DNA of 7,551 bases from a virus (lineage: Monodnaviria > Loebvirae > Hofneiviricota > Faserviricetes > Tubulavirales > Inoviridae). The notes under the pieces were generated by a model that made no database searches, had not been told where the DNA came from, and saw only the letters and a list, made by a program, of their open reading frames with translations. The stretch lies in IMG/VR virus record IMGVR_UViG_2565956711_000002, positions 1 through 7,551 of that record; one strand, written 5' to 3'. Each line of letters begins with the position of its first letter. The stretch's first letter is position 1. The position numbers and the translations under genes are program-made. Positions 1-6,104 of this stretch are shown one piece after another.

Positions 1-1035
1 TCATCGTATCGCCCCTGAATAAACCGTCACCGTTTCGCCGTCGATTTCACCCGTCATCATCATGCCGTCAAAGCTGAACTGCGAAGCCGGCTCTATACGC
101 AATCTGCCTGACGTGTCTGCAACAACAACCCATGCCTGACCATCGCGTTTAAGCCGTCCGGCAAGTCGCCATTTGTCCGACACAACGGGCTTAGCTGGCG
201 CGGCAGGTACAAAAGACGCTGAATTATTTGCGGCGGGTAAATCTTTAGTCTGCTGTTCAGGCTCTGAATTACCGTTTGACGTGAAAAACCAGAACAGATA
301 AAAAATGGCAATTACCGCCAGAATCAGTAACCCGACAGCTTTAAACCACAACATTTTAGAACTGAAAATATTCTGACGTTTATCGGTGACAAGTTCCCTT
401 CCCTGCCCGTTCTCATGGGATTTATATAGGGGGAATATCGCCTTGTCATATTTATTCTGATAACTGTTCGTCAGATTCGACTTAAACAGTTTGATACCCG
501 TAAATACGTCCACACGGTAGCGGTTATGCAGACCCAGCGCCACATGCTTACTCATGCGATACGTTGTTTCCACCCGGTCTTTAATGAATCGCGGAAGGTT
601 GGCAACAGACTGATTCATAACCACTAAATCACAGGTTACGCCCGTTTTTTCATCGGCAAAATGGCGATGTTCTGCAATGAAAGAGCGATGATTTGCAGGA
701 ATCCCTTTATCGTTCTCCCATATGCGCCATGCTTCATCAATACAGATTAAATCCCCCGGACGGCAGAACGTATCATCCGCAATGCCTGAATCCGTTTTGT
801 AGGGAAAGAAATTATCGTTCTGAACGTCTTCATTCTGAACAAGTAAAATTTCACCAAGTGATTCCCTGTCTGCCTTTTTAATATCAACGCAGTAATCATA
901 AATACTTTGCGTGGCAAGGCCGTAAATATTACTGACAATGCGACGCCCAGCGATACAGGCGGGAATAATGACGCTTGCCACCACTTCGTAAGATTTACCG
1001 CTTCCGGGAATGCCCACATACGCAGAAATAGCCAT
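1..1035 (-). CDS. Zot / pI-family filamentous phage assembly ATPase (gene I homolog)
   Basis: 344 aa. N-terminal Walker A GIPGSGKS and Walker B-like LICIDEAW, a single central hydrophobic span (MLWFKAVGLLILAVIAIFYLFWFF), then a C-terminal domain. ATG at 1033-1035 lies 3 nt after the pVI stop; stop TGA is at 1-3 on the minus strand. Confidence 0.88.
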   Translation of the reverse strand: MAISAYVGIPGSGKSYEVVASVIIPACIAGRRIVSNIYGLATQSIYDYCVDIKKADRESLGEILLVQNEDVQNDNFFPYKTDSGIADDTFCRPGDLICIDEAWRIWENDKGIPANHRSFIAEHRHFADEKTGVTCDLVVMNQSVANLPRFIKDRVETTYRMSKHVALGLHNRYRVDVFTGIKLFKSNLTNSYQNKYDKAIFPLYKSHENGQGRELVTDKRQNIFSSKMLWFKAVGLLILAVIAIFYLFWFFTSNGNSEPEQQTKDLPAANNSASFVPAAPAKPVVSDKWRLAGRLKRDGQAWVVVADTSGRLRIEPASQFSFDGMMMTGEIDGETVTVYSGAIR

Positions 1036-1038
1036 AAA

Positions 1039-1326
1039 TTAACCAATCAAAGGAATGCGACGAATAATAAAGCGCGTTAACAATGCTGAAAACATCAGTT
1101 TAATCCCTTCCGTGACCATAAACAGATTCACGAAATACCATACGCTATCAGGTAGTGAGGAAAACAACCCGGCAATATCAACAGATTTTGGCAACAGTGA
1201 CGCCAGAACCGGAACAAACGCCTGTACGACAAAGTACAGGCCAAAAAACAGAATAAATTTGACAACCACCGTTCGCAGCACAAAACCCAGCGCCACGTTA
1301 AAGGCTGAAACCAGAATACCAAACAT
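1039..1326 (-). CDS. Minor coat protein pVI-like
   Basis: 95 aa, very hydrophobic, with an LPDSV motif resembling the LPSDF region of Ff pVI. Positioned between pIII and pI as in Ff phages. GGAGG Shine-Dalgarno about 7 nt upstream of the ATG, lying just downstream of the pIII stop codon (TGA at 1337-1339). Confidence 0.7.
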   Translation of the reverse strand: MFGILVSAFNVALGFVLRTVVVKFILFFGLYFVVQAFVPVLASLLPKSVDIAGLFSSLPDSVWYFVNLFMVTEGIKLMFSALLTRFIIRRIPLIG

Positions 1327-1336
1327 AACGCCTCCG

Positions 1337-3220
1337 TCACGCAGTCAGAATGATACGCAGCGAAATAATGCCCCAGATAAGCAGGAATACCGCTTTCAGA
1401 AGTGGCCTGATTTTTTCCAGAAGCTCGCAGTGAGAATCAATGGAATATTTATTGTCCCAGAGTTCGAACGACCATACCGGACACTGAACATCCTTCGATG
1501 AAATACTCAGGTTTTTAATGTCCGGCATTAATTCTGTAATTGGCTTGAGAATTTCCTCACCTGTAGGCGGTTTTTCAAGTTCCGGCGATTTAATGCCGGG
1601 GTCTTCGCCTAAATCAACAGAAGTATCGGTATCTGTGCCTGTACCAGGGTGTACACCTGTATCCGTTCCCGCACCGGGTCTGGCATTAACCCACGACTGA
1701 GGAACGACAACCGGACTATAAAGCAAGCCCTTATCAAGTTTTACGCCAACAGCATTAGCCGCAGCCGTCAGTTCAGCCGCCGTAAAAGGTTTATCAAGCG
1801 GTATCCCCTGATATCCTTCCTGAACAACAGTCTGACCTGCAAGGCCATTAATAAGATTAACCAGCGCAGCCGGGTTTAACTGTTCCTCCGGCTTGAAATC
1901 TATATTATCAATAACCTCGCCATTAATTACCTGAGGTAAATTTGATGTATCAAATTCTGTATTAAAAAATATCTGGTCTTTAACATCCTGAACATCATTC
2001 GTCGTTTTATACACGGCCTTCTCAGGGTGGCAAATACTTTTCCACTGCGTTTTGGGATTATCAGCCGTACTGCCCGGCGCAGGTACTTTCTCGCTTTTAC
2101 ATAAATCCCATGAGTTTTCAAGCGTAACCGTTGTTGTTCCAACAGATAAAACCACAGTTACAATCGATGAATATCCACCAAAATAAGGATTCGGCTTTTC
2201 ATACTGAAAGTCTTTAACGGAAACCGAATAAACCTTAAAATTTCTTGGCATCCTGATATGTAAGTTATTGTCGTCAGACGCCTCATGATAAGTCACATTG
2301 GAATGAGAATAACCATTAATCGACTTATAAAGCGCAATCATTACCGGATTATCACTGACAAGTACAGCATCGCCCTTTGCATCCCTGATATCAGTCGAAT
2401 AAGGATATTTAGTACCCTTAACTGACACACGATATACATCATTCGGTAATGGCTGGCTTATCGGCGGTGGTGCATCAATATTGTAATAGGTTGGCGCAAT
2501 CTGAACAGGTTTAACCTGATGATTATAAGGGCTTATCGAGTCCTGAATATTCTTCGCAGAAAAGCCAGTAGCATCAGAGGGCAAATAAACAGCAACAGGG
2601 CTTTTAGGTGAAGGTGCAACAGAAGAAGTAACAGTAGCGCCATTGGACAAATTAAGTAAATAAGTTCCATCATCCTGTTTTATTCCACTTGTAATATATT
2701 CAACAGCTTTTGCGCCCTGCTTTAAAGCAAGGTCAGCAACGGAAATAACACCCGCAGCCTGCCCCAGCAATCCCCATGTTGTCTGTCCGGCAGCCATCAT
2801 ATTACTGCCAAAACTTGAAATACCCGTGGATATCGAATCGTCAATTGTATGCTTCGCAAGGCCATAAGCAGCCGCGAAAACTGACGTTCCGGTGCAAAGC
2901 TGAGGATTACCCACTTTCTCGCCACACATGCGGATTGAATCAAAAACGTCAGGACGTTCGCGTATAACCTCCGCAGCGACAGCGATACCCGCGCCCATAC
3001 CGAGAGAACTGGCACCCGTTGCGAATACACGCCCCGCAGATTGAGAAACAACCTGAGCTTCACGGGTTTCAACCATTTGCTGAATTACACGTCCAAATCC
3101 GTCTGCTGTTACTGCATCAGCATGTACACCGGATGAAACCAGTAAAGACAATATAGTAATACCTAACTTTCCAGACCCTGAATGACCGCCCAGGCGCATA
3201 AAAGCCCCCATAAAAAACAC
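1337..3220 (-). CDS. pIII-like adsorption / minor coat protein (large, 627 aa by longest ORF)
   Basis: N-terminal signal-peptide-like segment (hydrophobic core ITILSLLVSSGVHA). A Gly/Thr/Asp-rich linker (PGAGTDTGVHPGTGTDTDTS). C-terminal SID motif plus hydrophobic anchor (YSIDSHCELLEKIRPLLKAVFLLIWGIISL), comparable to the Ff pIII C-terminus (YEFSIDCDKINLFRGVFAFLLYV). Start is ambiguous: in-frame GTG at 3218-3220, ATG at 3209-3211, and ATG at 3197-3199 (the last preceded by a GGGGG run). Confidence 0.7.
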   Translation of the reverse strand: MFFMGAFMRLGGHSGSGKLGITILSLLVSSGVHADAVTADGFGRVIQQMVETREAQVVSQSAGRVFATGASSLGMGAGIAVAAEVIRERPDVFDSIRMCGEKVGNPQLCTGTSVFAAAYGLAKHTIDDSISTGISSFGSNMMAAGQTTWGLLGQAAGVISVADLALKQGAKAVEYITSGIKQDDGTYLLNLSNGATVTSSVAPSPKSPVAVYLPSDATGFSAKNIQDSISPYNHQVKPVQIAPTYYNIDAPPPISQPLPNDVYRVSVKGTKYPYSTDIRDAKGDAVLVSDNPVMIALYKSINGYSHSNVTYHEASDDNNLHIRMPRNFKVYSVSVKDFQYEKPNPYFGGYSSIVTVVLSVGTTTVTLENSWDLCKSEKVPAPGSTADNPKTQWKSICHPEKAVYKTTNDVQDVKDQIFFNTEFDTSNLPQVINGEVIDNIDFKPEEQLNPAALVNLINGLAGQTVVQEGYQGIPLDKPFTAAELTAAANAVGVKLDKGLLYSPVVVPQSWVNARPGAGTDTGVHPGTGTDTDTSVDLGEDPGIKSPELEKPPTGEEILKPITELMPDIKNLSISSKDVQCPVWSFELWDNKYSIDSHCELLEKIRPLLKAVFLLIWGIISLRIILTA

Positions 3221-3242
3221 ATAAAATCAAAAAGATATTGAG

Positions 3243-3273
3243 CCATAAATATAAAGGGGCTGTTACGCCCCTT
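3243..3273 (-). terminator. Intrinsic terminator downstream of the major coat gene
   Basis: Plus-strand arms aaggggc (3254-3260) and gcccctt (3267-3273) with a 6-nt loop. On the minus-strand transcript the hairpin is followed by the U-rich UAUAUUUAU. Lies immediately 3' of the pVIII stop (TAA at 3285-3287), matching the known terminator after gene VIII in Ff phages. Confidence 0.55.
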
Positions 3274-3284
3274 ACCTTTATGAA

Positions 3285-3533
3285 TTAAGCGCCACGAACC
3301 ATACGCAAAATCCAGCGGACACCCGCAGAACCTGCATACAGAACAATAAGAGAACCCGCTACCGCCATAATTCCGGTCAGAACGGAACCGAAATTAACGC
3401 TGTTAGTCAGTGGCGTAAGGTCAATACCTTTACCACCAACAACATCACCTTCAGCAGCAAATACGGCAGGTGCAGCAACTGCCAGAGTAAAAGCACCAAT
3501 ACGGGTTAAAGCCTGTTTAGTCTTAACAAACAT
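3285..3533 (-). CDS. Major coat protein pVIII
   Basis: 82 aa. Signal peptide ending AVFA followed by AEGD (Ff pVIII has FAAEGDD at its cleavage site). Mature part has an acidic N-terminus, a hydrophobic span (VLTGIMAVAGSLIVLYAGSAGV) and a basic C-terminus (RWILRMVRGA). AAGGAG Shine-Dalgarno 6 nt upstream of the ATG at 3531-3533. Confidence 0.88.
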   Translation of the reverse strand: MFVKTKQALTRIGAFTLAVAAPAVFAAEGDVVGGKGIDLTPLTNSVNFGSVLTGIMAVAGSLIVLYAGSAGVRWILRMVRGA

Positions 3534-3544
3534 AAAAACTCCTT

Positions 3545-3814
3545 TTATGCATTTCTTACGTGTTTAAGAATTTCACCTATTCCCTTTGCAAAGAGCCACA
3601 GGAAAAAGGTTGTCGTAAAAGCCAGCCCCCAGAATTGCGCCGCGACTGAATAATCAATATCGGGAACAGGCTTATCCTGAGAAACTACCGAAGACTGTAA
3701 TTTAGCCACTTCTGACTTCGGTAATTTCAAAGTCACTTCATCGCATCCGTCAGGGCTACCAAAACTCATATTCGGATTGCAGTATTTTGTCCTGATGATT
3801 ACCTCATCTGACAT
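3545..3814 (-). CDS. Small membrane protein in the g7/g9 position (function unknown; possible virion cap or assembly protein)
   Basis: 89 aa. Soluble N-terminal part with two Cys, then a C-terminal hydrophobic span (FWGLAFTTTFFLWLFAKGIG) and basic tail. Its stop TAA (3545-3547) abuts the pVIII Shine-Dalgarno; its start is 17 nt after the ssb stop. No family recognised from sequence. Confidence 0.45.
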   Translation of the reverse strand: MSDEVIIRTKYCNPNMSFGSPDGCDEVTLKLPKSEVAKLQSSVVSQDKPVPDIDYSVAAQFWGLAFTTTFFLWLFAKGIGEILKHVRNA

Positions 3815-3831
3815 AAAAGTATCGCCTTAGC

Positions 3832-4122
3832 TCATTCTAATAATTCAAGCAGCATATCAACGTTATACCCTTTAGACTGCTCACCTGTTTGCTTATCAGT
3901 GTATGGGAAACTCCGTTCATAACCAGTAATGCGGCAATGTACATCGGTAATTTCATCACCAATACGGCCTAGTGATTTCTTTGATTTAATACGAATGACA
4001 GGCGGAAAGCTATAAGCATCAGCCGCAGGAGAAACAATTGTTGTATAATAAAAACCGCCACTATTATTAAAACGTTTAATCTTTCCGGTAACAGTAGTTT
4101 CTAAATTAAGTAAATTACTCAT
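3832..4122 (-). CDS. ssDNA-binding protein, SSB/PriB-like OB-fold (functional analog of gV)
   Basis: 96 aa, immediately downstream of rep (16-nt gap) with an AAGGTG Shine-Dalgarno. Motif pattern recalls bacterial SSB: VTGKIKRF..NSGGFYYTTI against SSB LVGNLGQ..NGGAVANITLAT, and ITGYERSFPYTDKQTGEQ against SSB IEGQLRTRKWTDQSGQ. Assignment is by position plus this motif resemblance. Confidence 0.6.
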   Translation of the reverse strand: MSNLLNLETTVTGKIKRFNNSGGFYYTTIVSPAADAYSFPPVIRIKSKKSLGRIGDEITDVHCRITGYERSFPYTDKQTGEQSKGYNVDMLLELLE

Positions 4123-4138
4123 AATAACACCTTATATT

Positions 4139-5254
4139 CTATGCAACTCGTAAATGAGACGGTTTTACATACCACGATGGAATAACACAATCAGACACTT
4201 TAATCTCTCGCGTTTGCTTGACAACAACAGGAGAGAATTTCGAAACATTACATTTTTGCGCAATGTCAATACCAATCTTGCGGAGTCTTGCCCGATGAAT
4301 ACGCACTTGATTTTTACTTAAATCAAAAATATGACCATGAAACCATTGGATCGCGTACATAGCTGTAGTATTAGCTGCCCGTGTAGTTTCAACTATTCCA
4401 CGGGTAATAAGATGTTCACTAATAGTTTCAAAATCCATAGCATTCACCGATAACTTTTCATCAAGCGCCAGAAAATCAGAATGTAACTTATTTAACACAG
4501 AATAATCAGATAACCCCCAAAAACCTAGAGAGTGTTTTTGAATAAAACGAGACTTCAATTTTTGTTCAAATCTGACTATTCCATTTTCCTTACAATAATC
4601 AATCACACTAACAATATAATTAAACTCTTTTGACTGCTCAGAGAATTTATTTTTTATTTTTAATAAACTATGTAACTCAATCTCATGTGACTTATTATAT
4701 ACAGTCGGATAAATAAGATTAACATTCCCTTTTTTAGACAACCAGTCAACAGATTTACCGTTTGAATGCAACCGTGGTACACTATTCCTATAGGGTTGAG
4801 TCGAAAGCCCTGAAATATAATCATCCTCATTCCCTTTGCCAACAGATTTATTAGATGTTATGTGAAGCTCTTTAATTAACGCCCCATCACTGACCATATG
4901 AGCTTTTTCGGTTTCTTTAGACTGACCGGGCATTAAACGAGTGCATTTTGTAAAAAAAGGCAATTTAAGATCAAGAAGGATCTTATTGAAAACCATAACG
5001 CAAGCATCAACGGTAGGTAAGCCAAATAAATTATCAAGCCGCCCCCACCGCGAAGGGTTGCCCGTCATTTTTAGAACAGATCCACGGATAGAAATAGAAA
5101 CGACATCACAGAAAGATCCCCGGTGCTGAAAAGTTGGCTGAGAAAGCGCACTAACCTCACCACTTTCAAGATGAATACGCTGGTAAGCAACATCCGAGAG
5201 AATAGGAAGTTGAAAGCCGAAATCCTGTTCAATACTTAACCAGTCGAAGAACAT
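4139..5254 (-). CDS. Rolling-circle replication initiation protein, filamentous-phage gII (CRI) family
   Basis: 371 aa. Segment GIVRFEQKLKSRFIQKHSLGF resembles Ff pII GLVRFEARIKTRYLKSFGLP. First gene of the minus-strand operon, with a strong promoter-like element upstream. Gene is visibly AT-rich. Confidence 0.85.
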   Translation of the reverse strand: MFFDWLSIEQDFGFQLPILSDVAYQRIHLESGEVSALSQPTFQHRGSFCDVVSISIRGSVLKMTGNPSRWGRLDNLFGLPTVDACVMVFNKILLDLKLPFFTKCTRLMPGQSKETEKAHMVSDGALIKELHITSNKSVGKGNEDDYISGLSTQPYRNSVPRLHSNGKSVDWLSKKGNVNLIYPTVYNKSHEIELHSLLKIKNKFSEQSKEFNYIVSVIDYCKENGIVRFEQKLKSRFIQKHSLGFWGLSDYSVLNKLHSDFLALDEKLSVNAMDFETISEHLITRGIVETTRAANTTAMYAIQWFHGHIFDLSKNQVRIHRARLRKIGIDIAQKCNVSKFSPVVVKQTREIKVSDCVIPSWYVKPSHLRVA

Positions 5255-5295
5255 AGCGCCCTTTCTTAGATTCTCAGAAATTATTTCATGGTGCT

Positions 5296-5324
5296 TTTAT
5301 AAGACCTGAGAAACTAAGTGTCAA
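5296..5324 (-). promoter_or_regulatory. Putative sigma70 promoter for rep
   Basis: On the minus strand: -35 TTGACA (plus coordinates 5319-5324), 17-nt spacer, -10 TATAAA (plus coordinates 5296-5301). Predicted transcription start is roughly 35 nt upstream of the rep ATG at 5254. Confidence 0.45.
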
Positions 5325-5350
5325 CATTTCTAAGAATTTAGAGATATGAT
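5322..5350 (+). promoter_or_regulatory. Putative divergent promoter for the 62-aa ORF; its -35 overlaps the rep -35
   Basis: -35 TCAACA (5322-5327), 17-nt spacer, -10 TATGAT (5345-5350). GAGG Shine-Dalgarno at 5367-5370, ATG at 5378. The 10-mer ACATTTCTAA (5325-5334) overlaps the -35 and spacer. Confidence 0.35.
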
Positions 5351-5377
5351 GCAAGGCTAGCAGAATGAGGAAAGAGC

Positions 5378-5566
5378 ATGCCTACAAAGCACATAAACGA
5401 TGTTCAATGGCGAAAAATAGAGAAAGAAACCGTTAGAGCGGTATCAACCCTAGCTGTTCCAGTTAAAGATACCAAAATGCTCGAATGGATAATCGCCAAA
5501 GGGCTAGAGACGATCACAGAAGACGACTACCGCAAGTTCCTGAAGACAGAAAGCAAAAAAAAATAA
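5378..5566 (+). CDS. Hypothetical small protein (62 aa), candidate phage regulator
   Basis: Good Shine-Dalgarno (GAGG, 7-nt spacing) and ATG. Transcribed divergently from rep, the position taken by repressors in lysogenic filamentous phages. Charged protein with a lysine-rich C-terminus; no recognisable motif. Confidence 0.5.
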   Translation: MPTKHINDVQWRKIEKETVRAVSTLAVPVKDTKMLEWIIAKGLETITEDDYRKFLKTESKKK

Positions 5567-5581
5567 GCGAGCAGGAAGAAA

Positions 5582-5636
5582 ATACGGGAAACCGTACTAA
5601 AGTTCGGGTGTCACAGAACCCCGAACCGCTTCGCGG
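5582..5636. other. Cluster of three short GC-rich stem-loops between the two small ORFs
   Basis: TACGG-GAAA-CCGTA (5583-5596); GTTCGGG-11 nt-CCCGAAC (5602-5626); CCGC-TTC-GCGG (5626-5636). No U-run follows on either strand, so this is not a classic intrinsic terminator. Confidence 0.3.
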
Positions 5637-5758
5637 CGAAAAAACGAACAACAGCAGAGCTTGCGAAATCGGAATTAAGATAAGCTGGACGTCAAACGAT
5701 TAAACAAAAATACGCCATTATGCAAAGATCAAATGACACACTCTAAAAGGTATAGGTA

Positions 5759-6025
5759 ATGAACAAAGACCAGATAATACAGGTACTTAATGAAACAGAG
5801 AATGACAGCCCCGTAGCAAGAGCAGAATTAGCAAGATTCCTCGTAAAAACAATCTACAATTTTGTAAAAATGGAGAGGCCAGAAGGTGAAGGTCTGGACG
5901 GACGTGATGGCCCAGAAAGGCGCAGCATGGGAAAAATTGTAGATGCGGCAGAAAACCACTACTTTAACATGATAAAAGAAAGCCATGAAAAACAGGGAAT
6001 TGGAAGAAGAAACCCTGAGGAATGA
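5759..6025 (+). CDS. Hypothetical acidic protein (88 aa), accessory gene next to the att site
   Basis: ATG at 5759 with AAAGG about 8 nt upstream; stop TGA at 6023-6025, 6 nt before the dif-like site. Highly charged, soluble-looking composition; no family recognised. Confidence 0.45.
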   Translation: MNKDQIIQVLNETENDSPVARAELARFLVKTIYNFVKMERPEGEGLDGRDGPERRSMGKIVDAAENHYFNMIKESHEKQGIGRRNPEE

Positions 6026-6031
6026 CGCCCT

Positions 6032-6058
6032 AATGCGCATAATGACGTTATGCTAAAG
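6032..6058 (+). other. dif-like XerC/XerD recombination site (prophage att junction)
   Basis: AATGCGCATAA-TGACG-TTATGCTAAAG compared with E. coli dif GGTGCGCATAA-TGTATA-TTATGTTAAAT (recalled): each arm matches at 9 of 11 positions, with a divergent, apparently 5-nt, central region. Located next to hipA, where chromosomal dif lies in E. coli K-12 (recalled). Confidence 0.7.
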
Positions 6059-6059
6059 A

Positions 6060-6096
6060 GGCAGCTGCGGGGAGAAATTCTCGCAGCTGCCTTTTT
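6060..6096 (+). terminator. Intrinsic terminator (10-bp GC-rich stem plus T5)
   Basis: GGCAGCTGCG (6060-6069) pairs with CGCAGCTGCC (6082-6091) around a 12-nt loop, followed by TTTTT (6092-6096). Lies downstream of the 88-aa ORF but on the far side of the dif-like site. Confidence 0.6.
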
Positions 6097-6104
6097 GACA
6101 TATG

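Follow-up and report, generated by a model that had tools for sequence, protein, structure and literature searches.

A putative non-helix-turn-helix immunity cassette, a probable replication origin and a mobile accessory gene at the CTXphi-like end of a filamentous prophage

We analysed a 7,551-nucleotide (nt) stretch of inovirus DNA (IMG/VR record IMGVR_UViG_2565956711_000002, positions 1 to 7,551; hereafter the window), which is the right part of a filamentous prophage adjoining hipA. The analysis focused on two small plus-strand open reading frames (ORFs) of 62 and 88 amino acids (aa), ORF62 (5378-5566) and ORF88 (5759-6025), and on the hairpins that lie between them. This is the end of a dif-integrating filamentous prophage that carries its regulatory genes, origin and cargo, with a layout resembling the RS2 end of CTXphi. 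It combines a known architecture (immunity cassette, origin, cargo slot and phage attachment site, attP) with two apparently unstudied protein families. On balance, we favour a joint reading in which ORF62 and its control region form a repressor cassette, one of the hairpins (hp2) is the replication origin, and ORF88 is a mobile accessory gene.

A first-pass annotation of the same DNA had placed both ORFs on the plus strand at these coordinates, in agreement with the ORF list, and had described them as unrecognised proteins. Both are real, coding genes, and their reading frames are kept in many relatives. Profile and structure searches with the two proteins revealed no homology to characterised inovirus regulators, and a comparison of the same slots in related inoviruses showed that their contents are swapped.

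The ORF62 cassette and its candidate operators

ORF62 is most likely an immunity repressor that occupies the position held by rstR in CTXphi and belongs to an unstudied family without a helix-turn-helix (HTH). We favour this reading because operator-like repeats are enriched over the promoters and because the whole cassette is exchanged between near-identical phages. The replacement of the cassette is the strongest evidence for ORF62 as the regulator of this position (slot 1; the position of ORF88 is referred to as slot 2). In a near-identical phage (L012), whose other proteins are 92-100% identical to those of the window, the segment that begins at the rep start codon and stops short of hp2 (5255 to approximately 5597) has been swapped for unrelated DNA, and identity with the window picks up again at AAAGTTCGGG. 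The replacement DNA lacks the repeats described below and contains a 78-aa ORF that is ribbon-helix-helix (RHH)-like by eye and has no Pfam match. Proteins of this type (68-78 aa) are also found in slot 1 of Salmonella and Klebsiella-plasmid inoviruses (L093 and L090), and slot 1 of another locus (L014) holds a Pfam HTH_3 protein (29.9 bits). Exchange of a regulator together with its operators between otherwise similar phages is the behaviour of the rstR/ig-2 cassette in CTXphi.

The control region between the divergent rep and ORF62 genes (5255-5377) holds two promoters and several operator-like repeats. The rep promoter, as read from the sequence, lies on the minus strand (TTGACA, 5324-5319; TATAAA, 5301-5296; 17-nt spacer), and a promoter-like site for ORF62 lies on the plus strand (TCAACA, 5321-5326; TATGAT, 5345-5350; 18-nt spacer). 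The two upstream hexamers overlap, which bears out the back-to-back promoter arrangement proposed in the first-pass annotation. One operator-like repeat, TTCTTAGATTCTCAGAA (5263-5279), is located downstream of the rep promoter, a second, CCTGAGAAACTAAG (5305-5318), lies within the 17-nt spacer of that promoter, and a third, TTCTAAGAA (5328-5336), lies within the spacer of the ORF62 promoter. The repeats thus overlie both promoters in the window.

The same arrangement was found across 61 cassettes carrying ORF62-family genes. Per 150 nt, the full motif TTCTNAGAA averages 1.28 occurrences upstream of these genes and 0.0032 elsewhere in the loci (an enrichment of approximately 400-fold); for the repeat core the figures are 5.26 in the cassettes and 0.16 elsewhere in the same loci (approximately 33-fold). 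A TTGAC[A/T] hexamer on the rep strand is kept in 60 of the 61 cassettes, flanked by TCTNAG / TTCTNAGAA repeats, and in 56 of the 61 the repeat core is located at most 22 nt from this hexamer on its rep side. This upstream architecture is unchanged down to 41% identity between the ORF62-family proteins, and the TTCTNAGAA repeats are absent from cassettes with other regulators.

ORF62 encodes a basic protein (pI 9.5) and is preceded by a good Shine-Dalgarno sequence, as previously annotated (GAGGA, 5367-5371, 6 nt 5' of the ATG). Residues 1-62 match the phrog_5219 profile (5.1e-26), which is annotated as "unknown function" in PHROGs, and UniRef entries for the 62-aa protein carry the label "Repressor". 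The family comprises 136 cluster representatives at 50% identity, and its alignment contains an invariant MPTKHI N-terminus as well as invariant W11 and G42. In 69 inovirus-like viral contigs, the gene is located 120-170 nt upstream of a G2P-type Rep gene, and divergent from it, wherever Rep is detectable; in the window it lies directly upstream of rep in the same divergent orientation. The MPTKHI N-terminus and the high pI are consistent with a protein that reads DNA.

The fold of ORF62 is less easily placed. An AlphaFold2 model of the monomer (predicted local distance difference test score, pLDDT, 69.5) has a disordered N-terminus (coil, residues 1-7) followed by helices at residues 8-24, 31-41, and 48-60. 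This model would suit an RHH protein in which the strand is formed only in the dimer. RHH repressors such as Arc, Mnt, and CopG are also similar to ORF62 in size and layout, with a conserved N-terminal segment and two helices within approximately 45 residues, and like ORF62 they are small, basic, and associated with repeated short operators. The portion of approximately 45 residues likened to RHH proteins is the part that is kept in ORF62-type fusion proteins. A weak match (E 0.014) was found between the ORF62 family and the 68-aa slot-1 protein of L090, which is RHH-like by eye.

Some results weigh against a repressor role for ORF62 or against its likeness to RHH proteins. The protein has no homology to any characterised repressor, and the family has no RHH match in Pfam and gave nothing when compared with Arc using hhalign, so that neither RHH profiles nor the Arc comparison support the structural likeness. 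The N-terminal segment of ORF62, moreover, has one hydrophobic residue only. No match to ORF62 was found in Pfam, NCBIfam, or PDB sequence profiles, and an HTH_3/XRE-type domain was absent from ORF62 and 19 relatives in a family search at E values up to 10. The first-pass annotation had recognised the rep-proximal position as a repressor slot and had seen no obvious HTH, and both observations hold: ORF62 fills the slot without one.

We also observed proteins in which the first ~50 residues resemble the ORF62 N-terminal domain (MPTKHID..W..E...VKE) and are fused to C-terminal P-loop NTPase-like domains. These are proteins of 170-320 aa and include P0084, P0128, P0160, P0171, and P0176.

We infer that ORF62 is a small basic DNA-binding protein that would act on TTCTNAGAA-type repeats as both immunity repressor and autoregulator. 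Its binding would hold Rep low in the lysogen and would block superinfecting phages of the same immunity type, and the gene and its operators would travel together as an exchangeable cassette.

Hairpins between ORF62 and ORF88

The first-pass annotation had described a structured hairpin cluster between the two ORFs, and three hairpins were indeed identified there on the minus strand, which is the rep (packaged) strand. The first, hp1 (5583-5596), has a covarying stem followed by a T-run. The second, hp2 (5602-5626), has a GTTCGGG / CCCGAAC stem and an 11-nt loop, GTTCTGTGACA. It is abutted by a mini-hairpin (5626-5636) that reads CCGC-GAA-GCGG, and so contains GCGAAGC, on the packaged strand and CCGC-TTC-GCGG on the other. 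Conservation and covariation support the hairpins better than folding energy does. The 71-nt core folds at -12.7 kcal/mol (z-score -2.5), and the whole 206-nt spacer is not unusually stable (z-score about -1). Across 13 distinct versions of the block, the expected pairing is present in 86.9% of cells compared with at most 44% when the partners are slid. Both sides have changed at five of the seven pairs in the hp1 stem, and the hp2 stem shows a compensatory change from T-A to C-G. An Rfam scan of 5200-6230 returned only chance-level matches to microRNA and small RNA families.

The "major intergenic region" of phage If1 contains a match to the hairpin block at 88%, and a further match was found in Alteromonas phage phiAFP1; the Rep proteins of these phages are 81.6% and 50.5% identical, respectively, to that of the window. 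If1 is the closest isolate for the window's Rep and origin, and its hp1 and hp2 are almost base for base those of the window. The window differs from If1 and the Ff phages in having a gene between origin and rep, and the If1 record carries no annotation of the element. Among inovirus loci, hp2 was found only where Rep is at least 50% identical to that of the window (and in most such loci), always on the rep strand. Hairpin D of the Ff phages M13 and f1 has a loop of the same length as hp2. The M13 hairpin, GAGTCCAC-GTTCTTTAATA-GTGGACTC, carries the gpII nick; its loop, GTTCTTTAATA, is identical to the hp2 loop at 8 of 11 positions, and the stem sequences differ.

The breakpoints of module exchange also flank hp2. 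The immunity swap described above ends between hp1 and hp2, and swaps of slot 2 start just past the mini-hairpin. Because hp2 resembles the Ff nick hairpin and is located at these breakpoints, we consider that it is probably the plus-strand origin, that is, the hairpin nicked by Rep. The first-pass annotation had suggested that the two genes stand in place of the origin region, which probably does not hold, as the conserved hairpins of the proposed origin sit between them. The hairpins following ORF62 would then be the core of the replication origin, and the G2P-family Rep would nick the packaged strand in the hp2 loop, with a predicted nick at GTTCTGTGAC/A on the minus strand of the window, around 5611-5612. 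The T-run after hp1 is present on the packaged strand in most versions, and hp1 therefore resembles a terminator of phage-sense transcripts. It probably is one, in which case it would end phage-sense transcription, and it is possibly the counterpart of the Ff origin hairpin E.

In Escherichia coli strains G5 and PEC148, related prophages lie in tandem at dif, and the order within the phage unit is ORF88, attP, and then the secretin gene pIV. In tandem dif arrays of different phages, rolling-circle replication that starts at one origin and stops at the next would exchange modules exactly at hp2. This copying is proposed to explain the breakpoints, and nicking by Rep at hp2 is likewise a proposal.

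An alternative that deserves attention, though we regard it as the less likely one, is that the hairpin cluster is not the Rep nick site but a minus-strand origin or a general single-strand initiation signal, read on incoming single-stranded DNA by host primase, PriA, or RNA polymerase. Copies of the hp2 element were found in 434 plasmids, of which 389 are conjugative, as well as in an insertion sequence (IS) cassette, and no Rep gene was found in the three non-phage contexts inspected (two plasmids and the IS element). This distribution fits a priming signal recognised by the host at least as well as it fits a Rep-specific origin, and the GCGAAGC mini-hairpin on the packaged strand is typical of priming sites; these observations count against hp2 as a Rep-specific origin. 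Such mini-hairpins have been linked with priming sites on single-stranded DNA (ssDNA) and reported at primase-dependent origins (PMC13037366). The near-invariant sequence of the element in hosts as distant as Alteromonas would likewise suggest a conserved host reader. On the other side, the element in inoviruses follows the relatedness of Rep (at least 50% identity) and the orientation of the rep strand, the loop of hp2 resembles the Ff nick hairpin in length and sequence, and the exchange breakpoints are located at hp2. No BLAST similarity was found between the element and G4-type origins in the phage collection. The two kinds of origin may also simply adjoin, as they do in Ff. A DnaG CTG start site in the hp2 loop was considered and rejected, as it is not conserved on one strand. 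Our literature search on single-strand initiation (ssi)/G-sites and on mapping of the If1 origin yielded nothing usable beyond the review of mini-hairpins.

Several further observations concern hp2 and its surroundings. The element occurs twice in an IS element of E. coli MB50 (L007, 5005-5043 and 5960-5994), where the copies flank a Shedu gene. Plasmid copies (e.g., L002, 4012-4050, and L003, 4020-4058) lie beside genes of the STM4504 family or genes for TIR-domain proteins and share their left flank. From these contexts, the hp2 region looks like a recurrent junction for defence-type cargo. Within the "major intergenic region" of If1 (L001, NC_001954), an ORF of 67 aa that lacks annotation runs on the opposite strand; it is homologous to proteins found in slot 1 of related prophages, and the same hairpins come after it. 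This region (L001, 1290-1493 and 781-1224) also has an ORF that resembles a fragment of an IS200-type transposase. The If1 "ORF320" is Rep.

ORF88 and the variable slot

Its genomic distribution marks ORF88 as a mobile accessory gene. It sits in a slot of variable content, with the probable origin on one side and a CTXphi-type attP on the other. In the Klebsiella-plasmid phage this slot is filled by a 113-aa protein and in E. coli SW071618 by one of 64 aa; in L014 an ORF88 homologue shares it with a 364-aa protein. ORF88 was found combined with three different slot-1 regulators, and its copies in phages with unrelated slot-1 repressors are 99% identical; conversely, the slot-1 cassette of L012 and L093 recurs in L090 with a different slot-2 gene. 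ORF62 and ORF88 are therefore exchanged independently and do not form the single module that the first-pass annotation had assumed, and ORF88 is not a specific partner of ORF62, since it is paired with three unrelated regulators. The suggestion in the same annotation of a cargo function fared better, as ORF88 behaves as exchangeable cargo.

ORF88 homologues also extend well beyond phages. The family includes at least 148 clusters from Enterobacterales and Actinobacteria, every one of which is annotated as "hypothetical". One homologue is located on an IncFII-type conjugative plasmid between traI and repA, and an actinobacterial plasmid carries another, flanked by parAB and a resolvase gene; others are found in a type IV secretion system (T4SS) element, beside umuDC, and in an IS-rich island. 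The pair formed by an ORF88 homologue and the 364-aa protein was seen twice, in the L014 inovirus (6298-7392) and beside umuDC-like genes (L096, 3425-4519). The 364-aa companion apparently has an N-terminal membrane helix.

The ORF88 protein is acidic, as first described (pI 5.4, net charge -3.3), and the phrog_37184 profile matches residues 1-88 (2.3e-62), again with the PHROG annotation "unknown function". In the family alignment, an invariant loop spans residues 40-56, RPEGEGLDGRDGPERRS, with the motif PEGEGLDGRDGPERR. This motif is unchanged despite many synonymous codon changes between loci that are 35-99% identical, which indicates that selection acts on the ORF88 protein. The motif was thus rejected as a DNA element. 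A perfect 12-nt inverted repeat that brackets the motif (5852-5863 and 5933-5944) was likewise ruled out as a packaging signal or origin: its fold is not significant (z-score -1.4), its arms are not complementary in the plasmid homologue (judged by eye), and the enclosed motif is under selection at the protein level. The repeat is probably due to chance.

The structural model of ORF88 (pLDDT 87) is a helical hairpin with helices at residues 3-10, 18-39, and 52-78, in which the invariant motif forms the connecting loop. Structure searches returned only generic helical hairpins, including variants of Rop, and helical-hairpin dimers of the Rop/Rom type count among the closest known systems. P0259 has an ORF88-type domain fused to an Arc-like RHH domain (Pfam Arc, 46.3 bits), a fusion on an actinobacterial plasmid (L098, 3004-3534) places the ORF88-type domain after an N-terminal domain that has no Pfam match and is Xis-like by eye, and one family protein is a tandem duplication (P0259, P0287, and P0236 being the fusion and duplication proteins). 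These fusions and the duplication give a hint that the family forms dimeric bundles acting together with DNA-binding proteins, and ORF88 is probably a dimeric four-helix-bundle protein.

As for what this protein does, ORF88 offers no functional clue other than its context. It also has a weak Shine-Dalgarno sequence (AAGG, 8 nt upstream) and no promoter that we could find, and these points weigh against our reading of the gene. The upstream spacer (5637-5758), which is conserved only in part among relatives, contains no convincing promoter or terminator on the plus strand. Read-through from the ORF62 promoter is thus possible, and expression in the lysogen may arise in this way. No match to ORF88 was found in Pfam, NCBIfam, or other profile libraries, a Pfam search for DUF3653 (the XafT Xer activation factor) found none in ORF88 or 27 aligned relatives, and PADLOC returned no match for ORF62, ORF88, or two ORF88 homologues. 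Our results provide no evidence for or against a role in superinfection exclusion or anti-defence, given the lack of PADLOC, Pfam, and NCBIfam matches and the purely generic fold matches. ORF88 would be non-essential, and its invariant loop of glycine and acidic residues would probably bind a widely conserved cellular or DNA-associated partner; we commit to no more than a mobile accessory gene with a conserved loop that would bind a conserved partner.

Two readings of its role are leading. It is possible, at a tentative level, that ORF88 serves in regulation as a co-factor, supplying DNA-binding proteins of mobile elements with an oligomerisation or sensor domain, for example as co-repressor or anti-repressor, and could in this way tune the lysogenic switch or replication and resolution. 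This would account for the fusions to the Arc-like RHH domain (P0259) and to the Xis-like domain, the latter recognised by eye, for the tandem duplication suggestive of a dimeric bundle, and for the constant position of ORF88 beside regulators or modules for replication, partition, or resolution. In the window, it lies downstream of the repressor gene with no plus-strand terminator between the two. However, ORF88 is 99% identical alongside unrelated slot-1 repressors and hence not specific to ORF62, a single fusion is confirmed by a domain model, and some of the fusions may be gene-calling artefacts on short contigs.

More doubtful is the second reading, in which ORF88 is an anti-defence or host-takeover protein of elements that enter the cell as ssDNA, with the loop blocking a conserved host immunity or repair factor. 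Its occurrence in two phyla, on inoviruses as well as on conjugative plasmids and T4SS elements, its small size and acidity, and its position in a variable cargo slot are in keeping with such a role, as is the neighbouring junction, which in plasmids and the IS element holds defence genes. Against this, ORF88 has neither a PADLOC match nor a structural match to known inhibitors, the homologue on the IncF-type plasmid is located near repA and not in the leading region, and the fusions to DNA-binding domains point to regulation, not inhibition.

The prophage end and comparison with known systems

The ORF88 stop codon (TGA, 6023-6025) is followed after 6 nt by a dif-like site, AATGCGCATAATGACGTTATGCTAAAG (6032-6058, plus strand), as had been noted in the first-pass annotation. 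This site is one arm of a CTXphi-type attP. Intact attP sites of relatives consist of two inverted dif-like sites around a GC-rich hairpin (L006, 10776-10874; L004, 9772-9860), and in PEC148, G5, and L012 they form a forked hairpin on the packaged strand (-31 kcal/mol, z-score -8.2). A forked hairpin with two inverted dif sites is the CTXphi type of attP. The window has a single dif-like site; its right end continues into an IS-borne copy, and the second arm is thereby lost. In intact relatives the GC-rich hairpin (6058-6096) caps the attP fold; here it is the variant present in an IS-borne copy. It is followed by the right inverted repeat of an ISNCY/IS1202-group element (6104-6152), an AATAT target duplication (6153-6157), host DNA, and hipA (6229-7551). 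Positions 6034-6150 show complete identity to the right-hand end of an element of the ISNCY/IS1202 group in E. coli MB50, and the identity takes in its inverted repeat and the AATAT duplication adjoining dif. The MB50 element (L007, 3330-3410 and 5960-6125) carries a transposase gene and a Shedu gene and lies directly beside dif. The crossover between the prophage and the IS end maps within the dif-like site.

The remaining phage genes of the window are on the minus strand. They encode pI/Zot (1-1035), pVI (DUF2523), a 627-aa pIII-like protein, the major coat protein, an 89-aa protein, a 96-aa ssDNA-binding-type protein (phrog_8473), and the G2P-family Rep (4139-5254). The first-pass annotation had regarded ORF62 and ORF88 as the only genes without a recognisable family. 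This view needs correcting, as the 89-aa and 627-aa proteins have no Pfam match either and both ORFs belong to PHROG families. An overlapping 72-aa ORF (5485-5703) was dismissed, as its Pfam and PHROG matches were at chance level only.

Of the known systems, the RS2 region of CTXphi (rstR / ig-2 / rstA) provides a close parallel in layout. In both, a small regulator gene and the replication gene point away from each other across an intergenic region that contains the operators (candidate ones in the window), the origin (ig-1 in CTXphi) lies beyond the regulator gene, and integration is at dif, with a forked attP hairpin on the packaged strand in relatives of the window phage. The two differ in that ORF62 lacks an HTH and has no sequence similarity to RstR, and in that the window has a variable gene, ORF88, between origin and attP and only one dif-like arm. 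That ORF62 is not a transcriptional repressor and instead has another rep-associated role, as a replication accessory, an origin-binding protein, or an antitoxin-like factor, would suit its lack of a recognisable DNA-binding fold and the fusion of ORF62-type N-terminal domains to P-loop NTPase-like domains, but this is very improbable given that the conserved repeats lie over promoters and not at the origin, that the slot is filled elsewhere by an HTH_3 protein or a small ORF that is RHH-like by eye, and that ORF62 is divergent from rep in the same placement as rstR.

The dif prophages Ypfphi of Yersinia pestis and CUS-1 of E. coli K1 follow the same plan, with an rstR-like gene next to rep (in Ypfphi an rstR homologue at the same position) and then small att-adjacent ORFs that differ between the two (PMC4266046). 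They belong to a different lineage from the window phage and have another family of regulator, and the likeness is one of published description.

Taken as an immunity repressor, ORF62 supplies a probable role and a candidate operator, TTCTNAGAA, for a widespread inovirus family listed as "unknown function". These Enterobacterial dif prophages would thus have exchangeable immunity cassettes like those of CTXphi, which bears on polylysogeny and superinfection among phages of Citrobacter, Salmonella, Serratia, and E. coli. With hp2, the If1-like Rep clade gains a probable site for its replication origin, and origin-to-origin copying in tandem dif arrays is suggested as a process that shuffles immunity and cargo modules. 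ORF88, with its invariant loop, confident model, and presence in phages and plasmids of two phyla, is a clean small target. A bolder proposal, which we hold to be rather unlikely, is that ORF88 founds a family of helical hairpins of approximately 80 residues on ssDNA-transmitted elements (inoviruses, conjugative plasmids, and integrative and conjugative elements of Proteobacteria and Actinobacteria) whose loop, PEGEGLDGRDGPERR, engages a universally conserved host factor and, separately, that hp2 and the downstream slot form a general Rep-driven junction for cassette exchange that also moves Shedu-type defence genes. If this is true, phages and plasmids would have in common, in ORF88, a new class of effector for establishment, anti-defence, or regulation.

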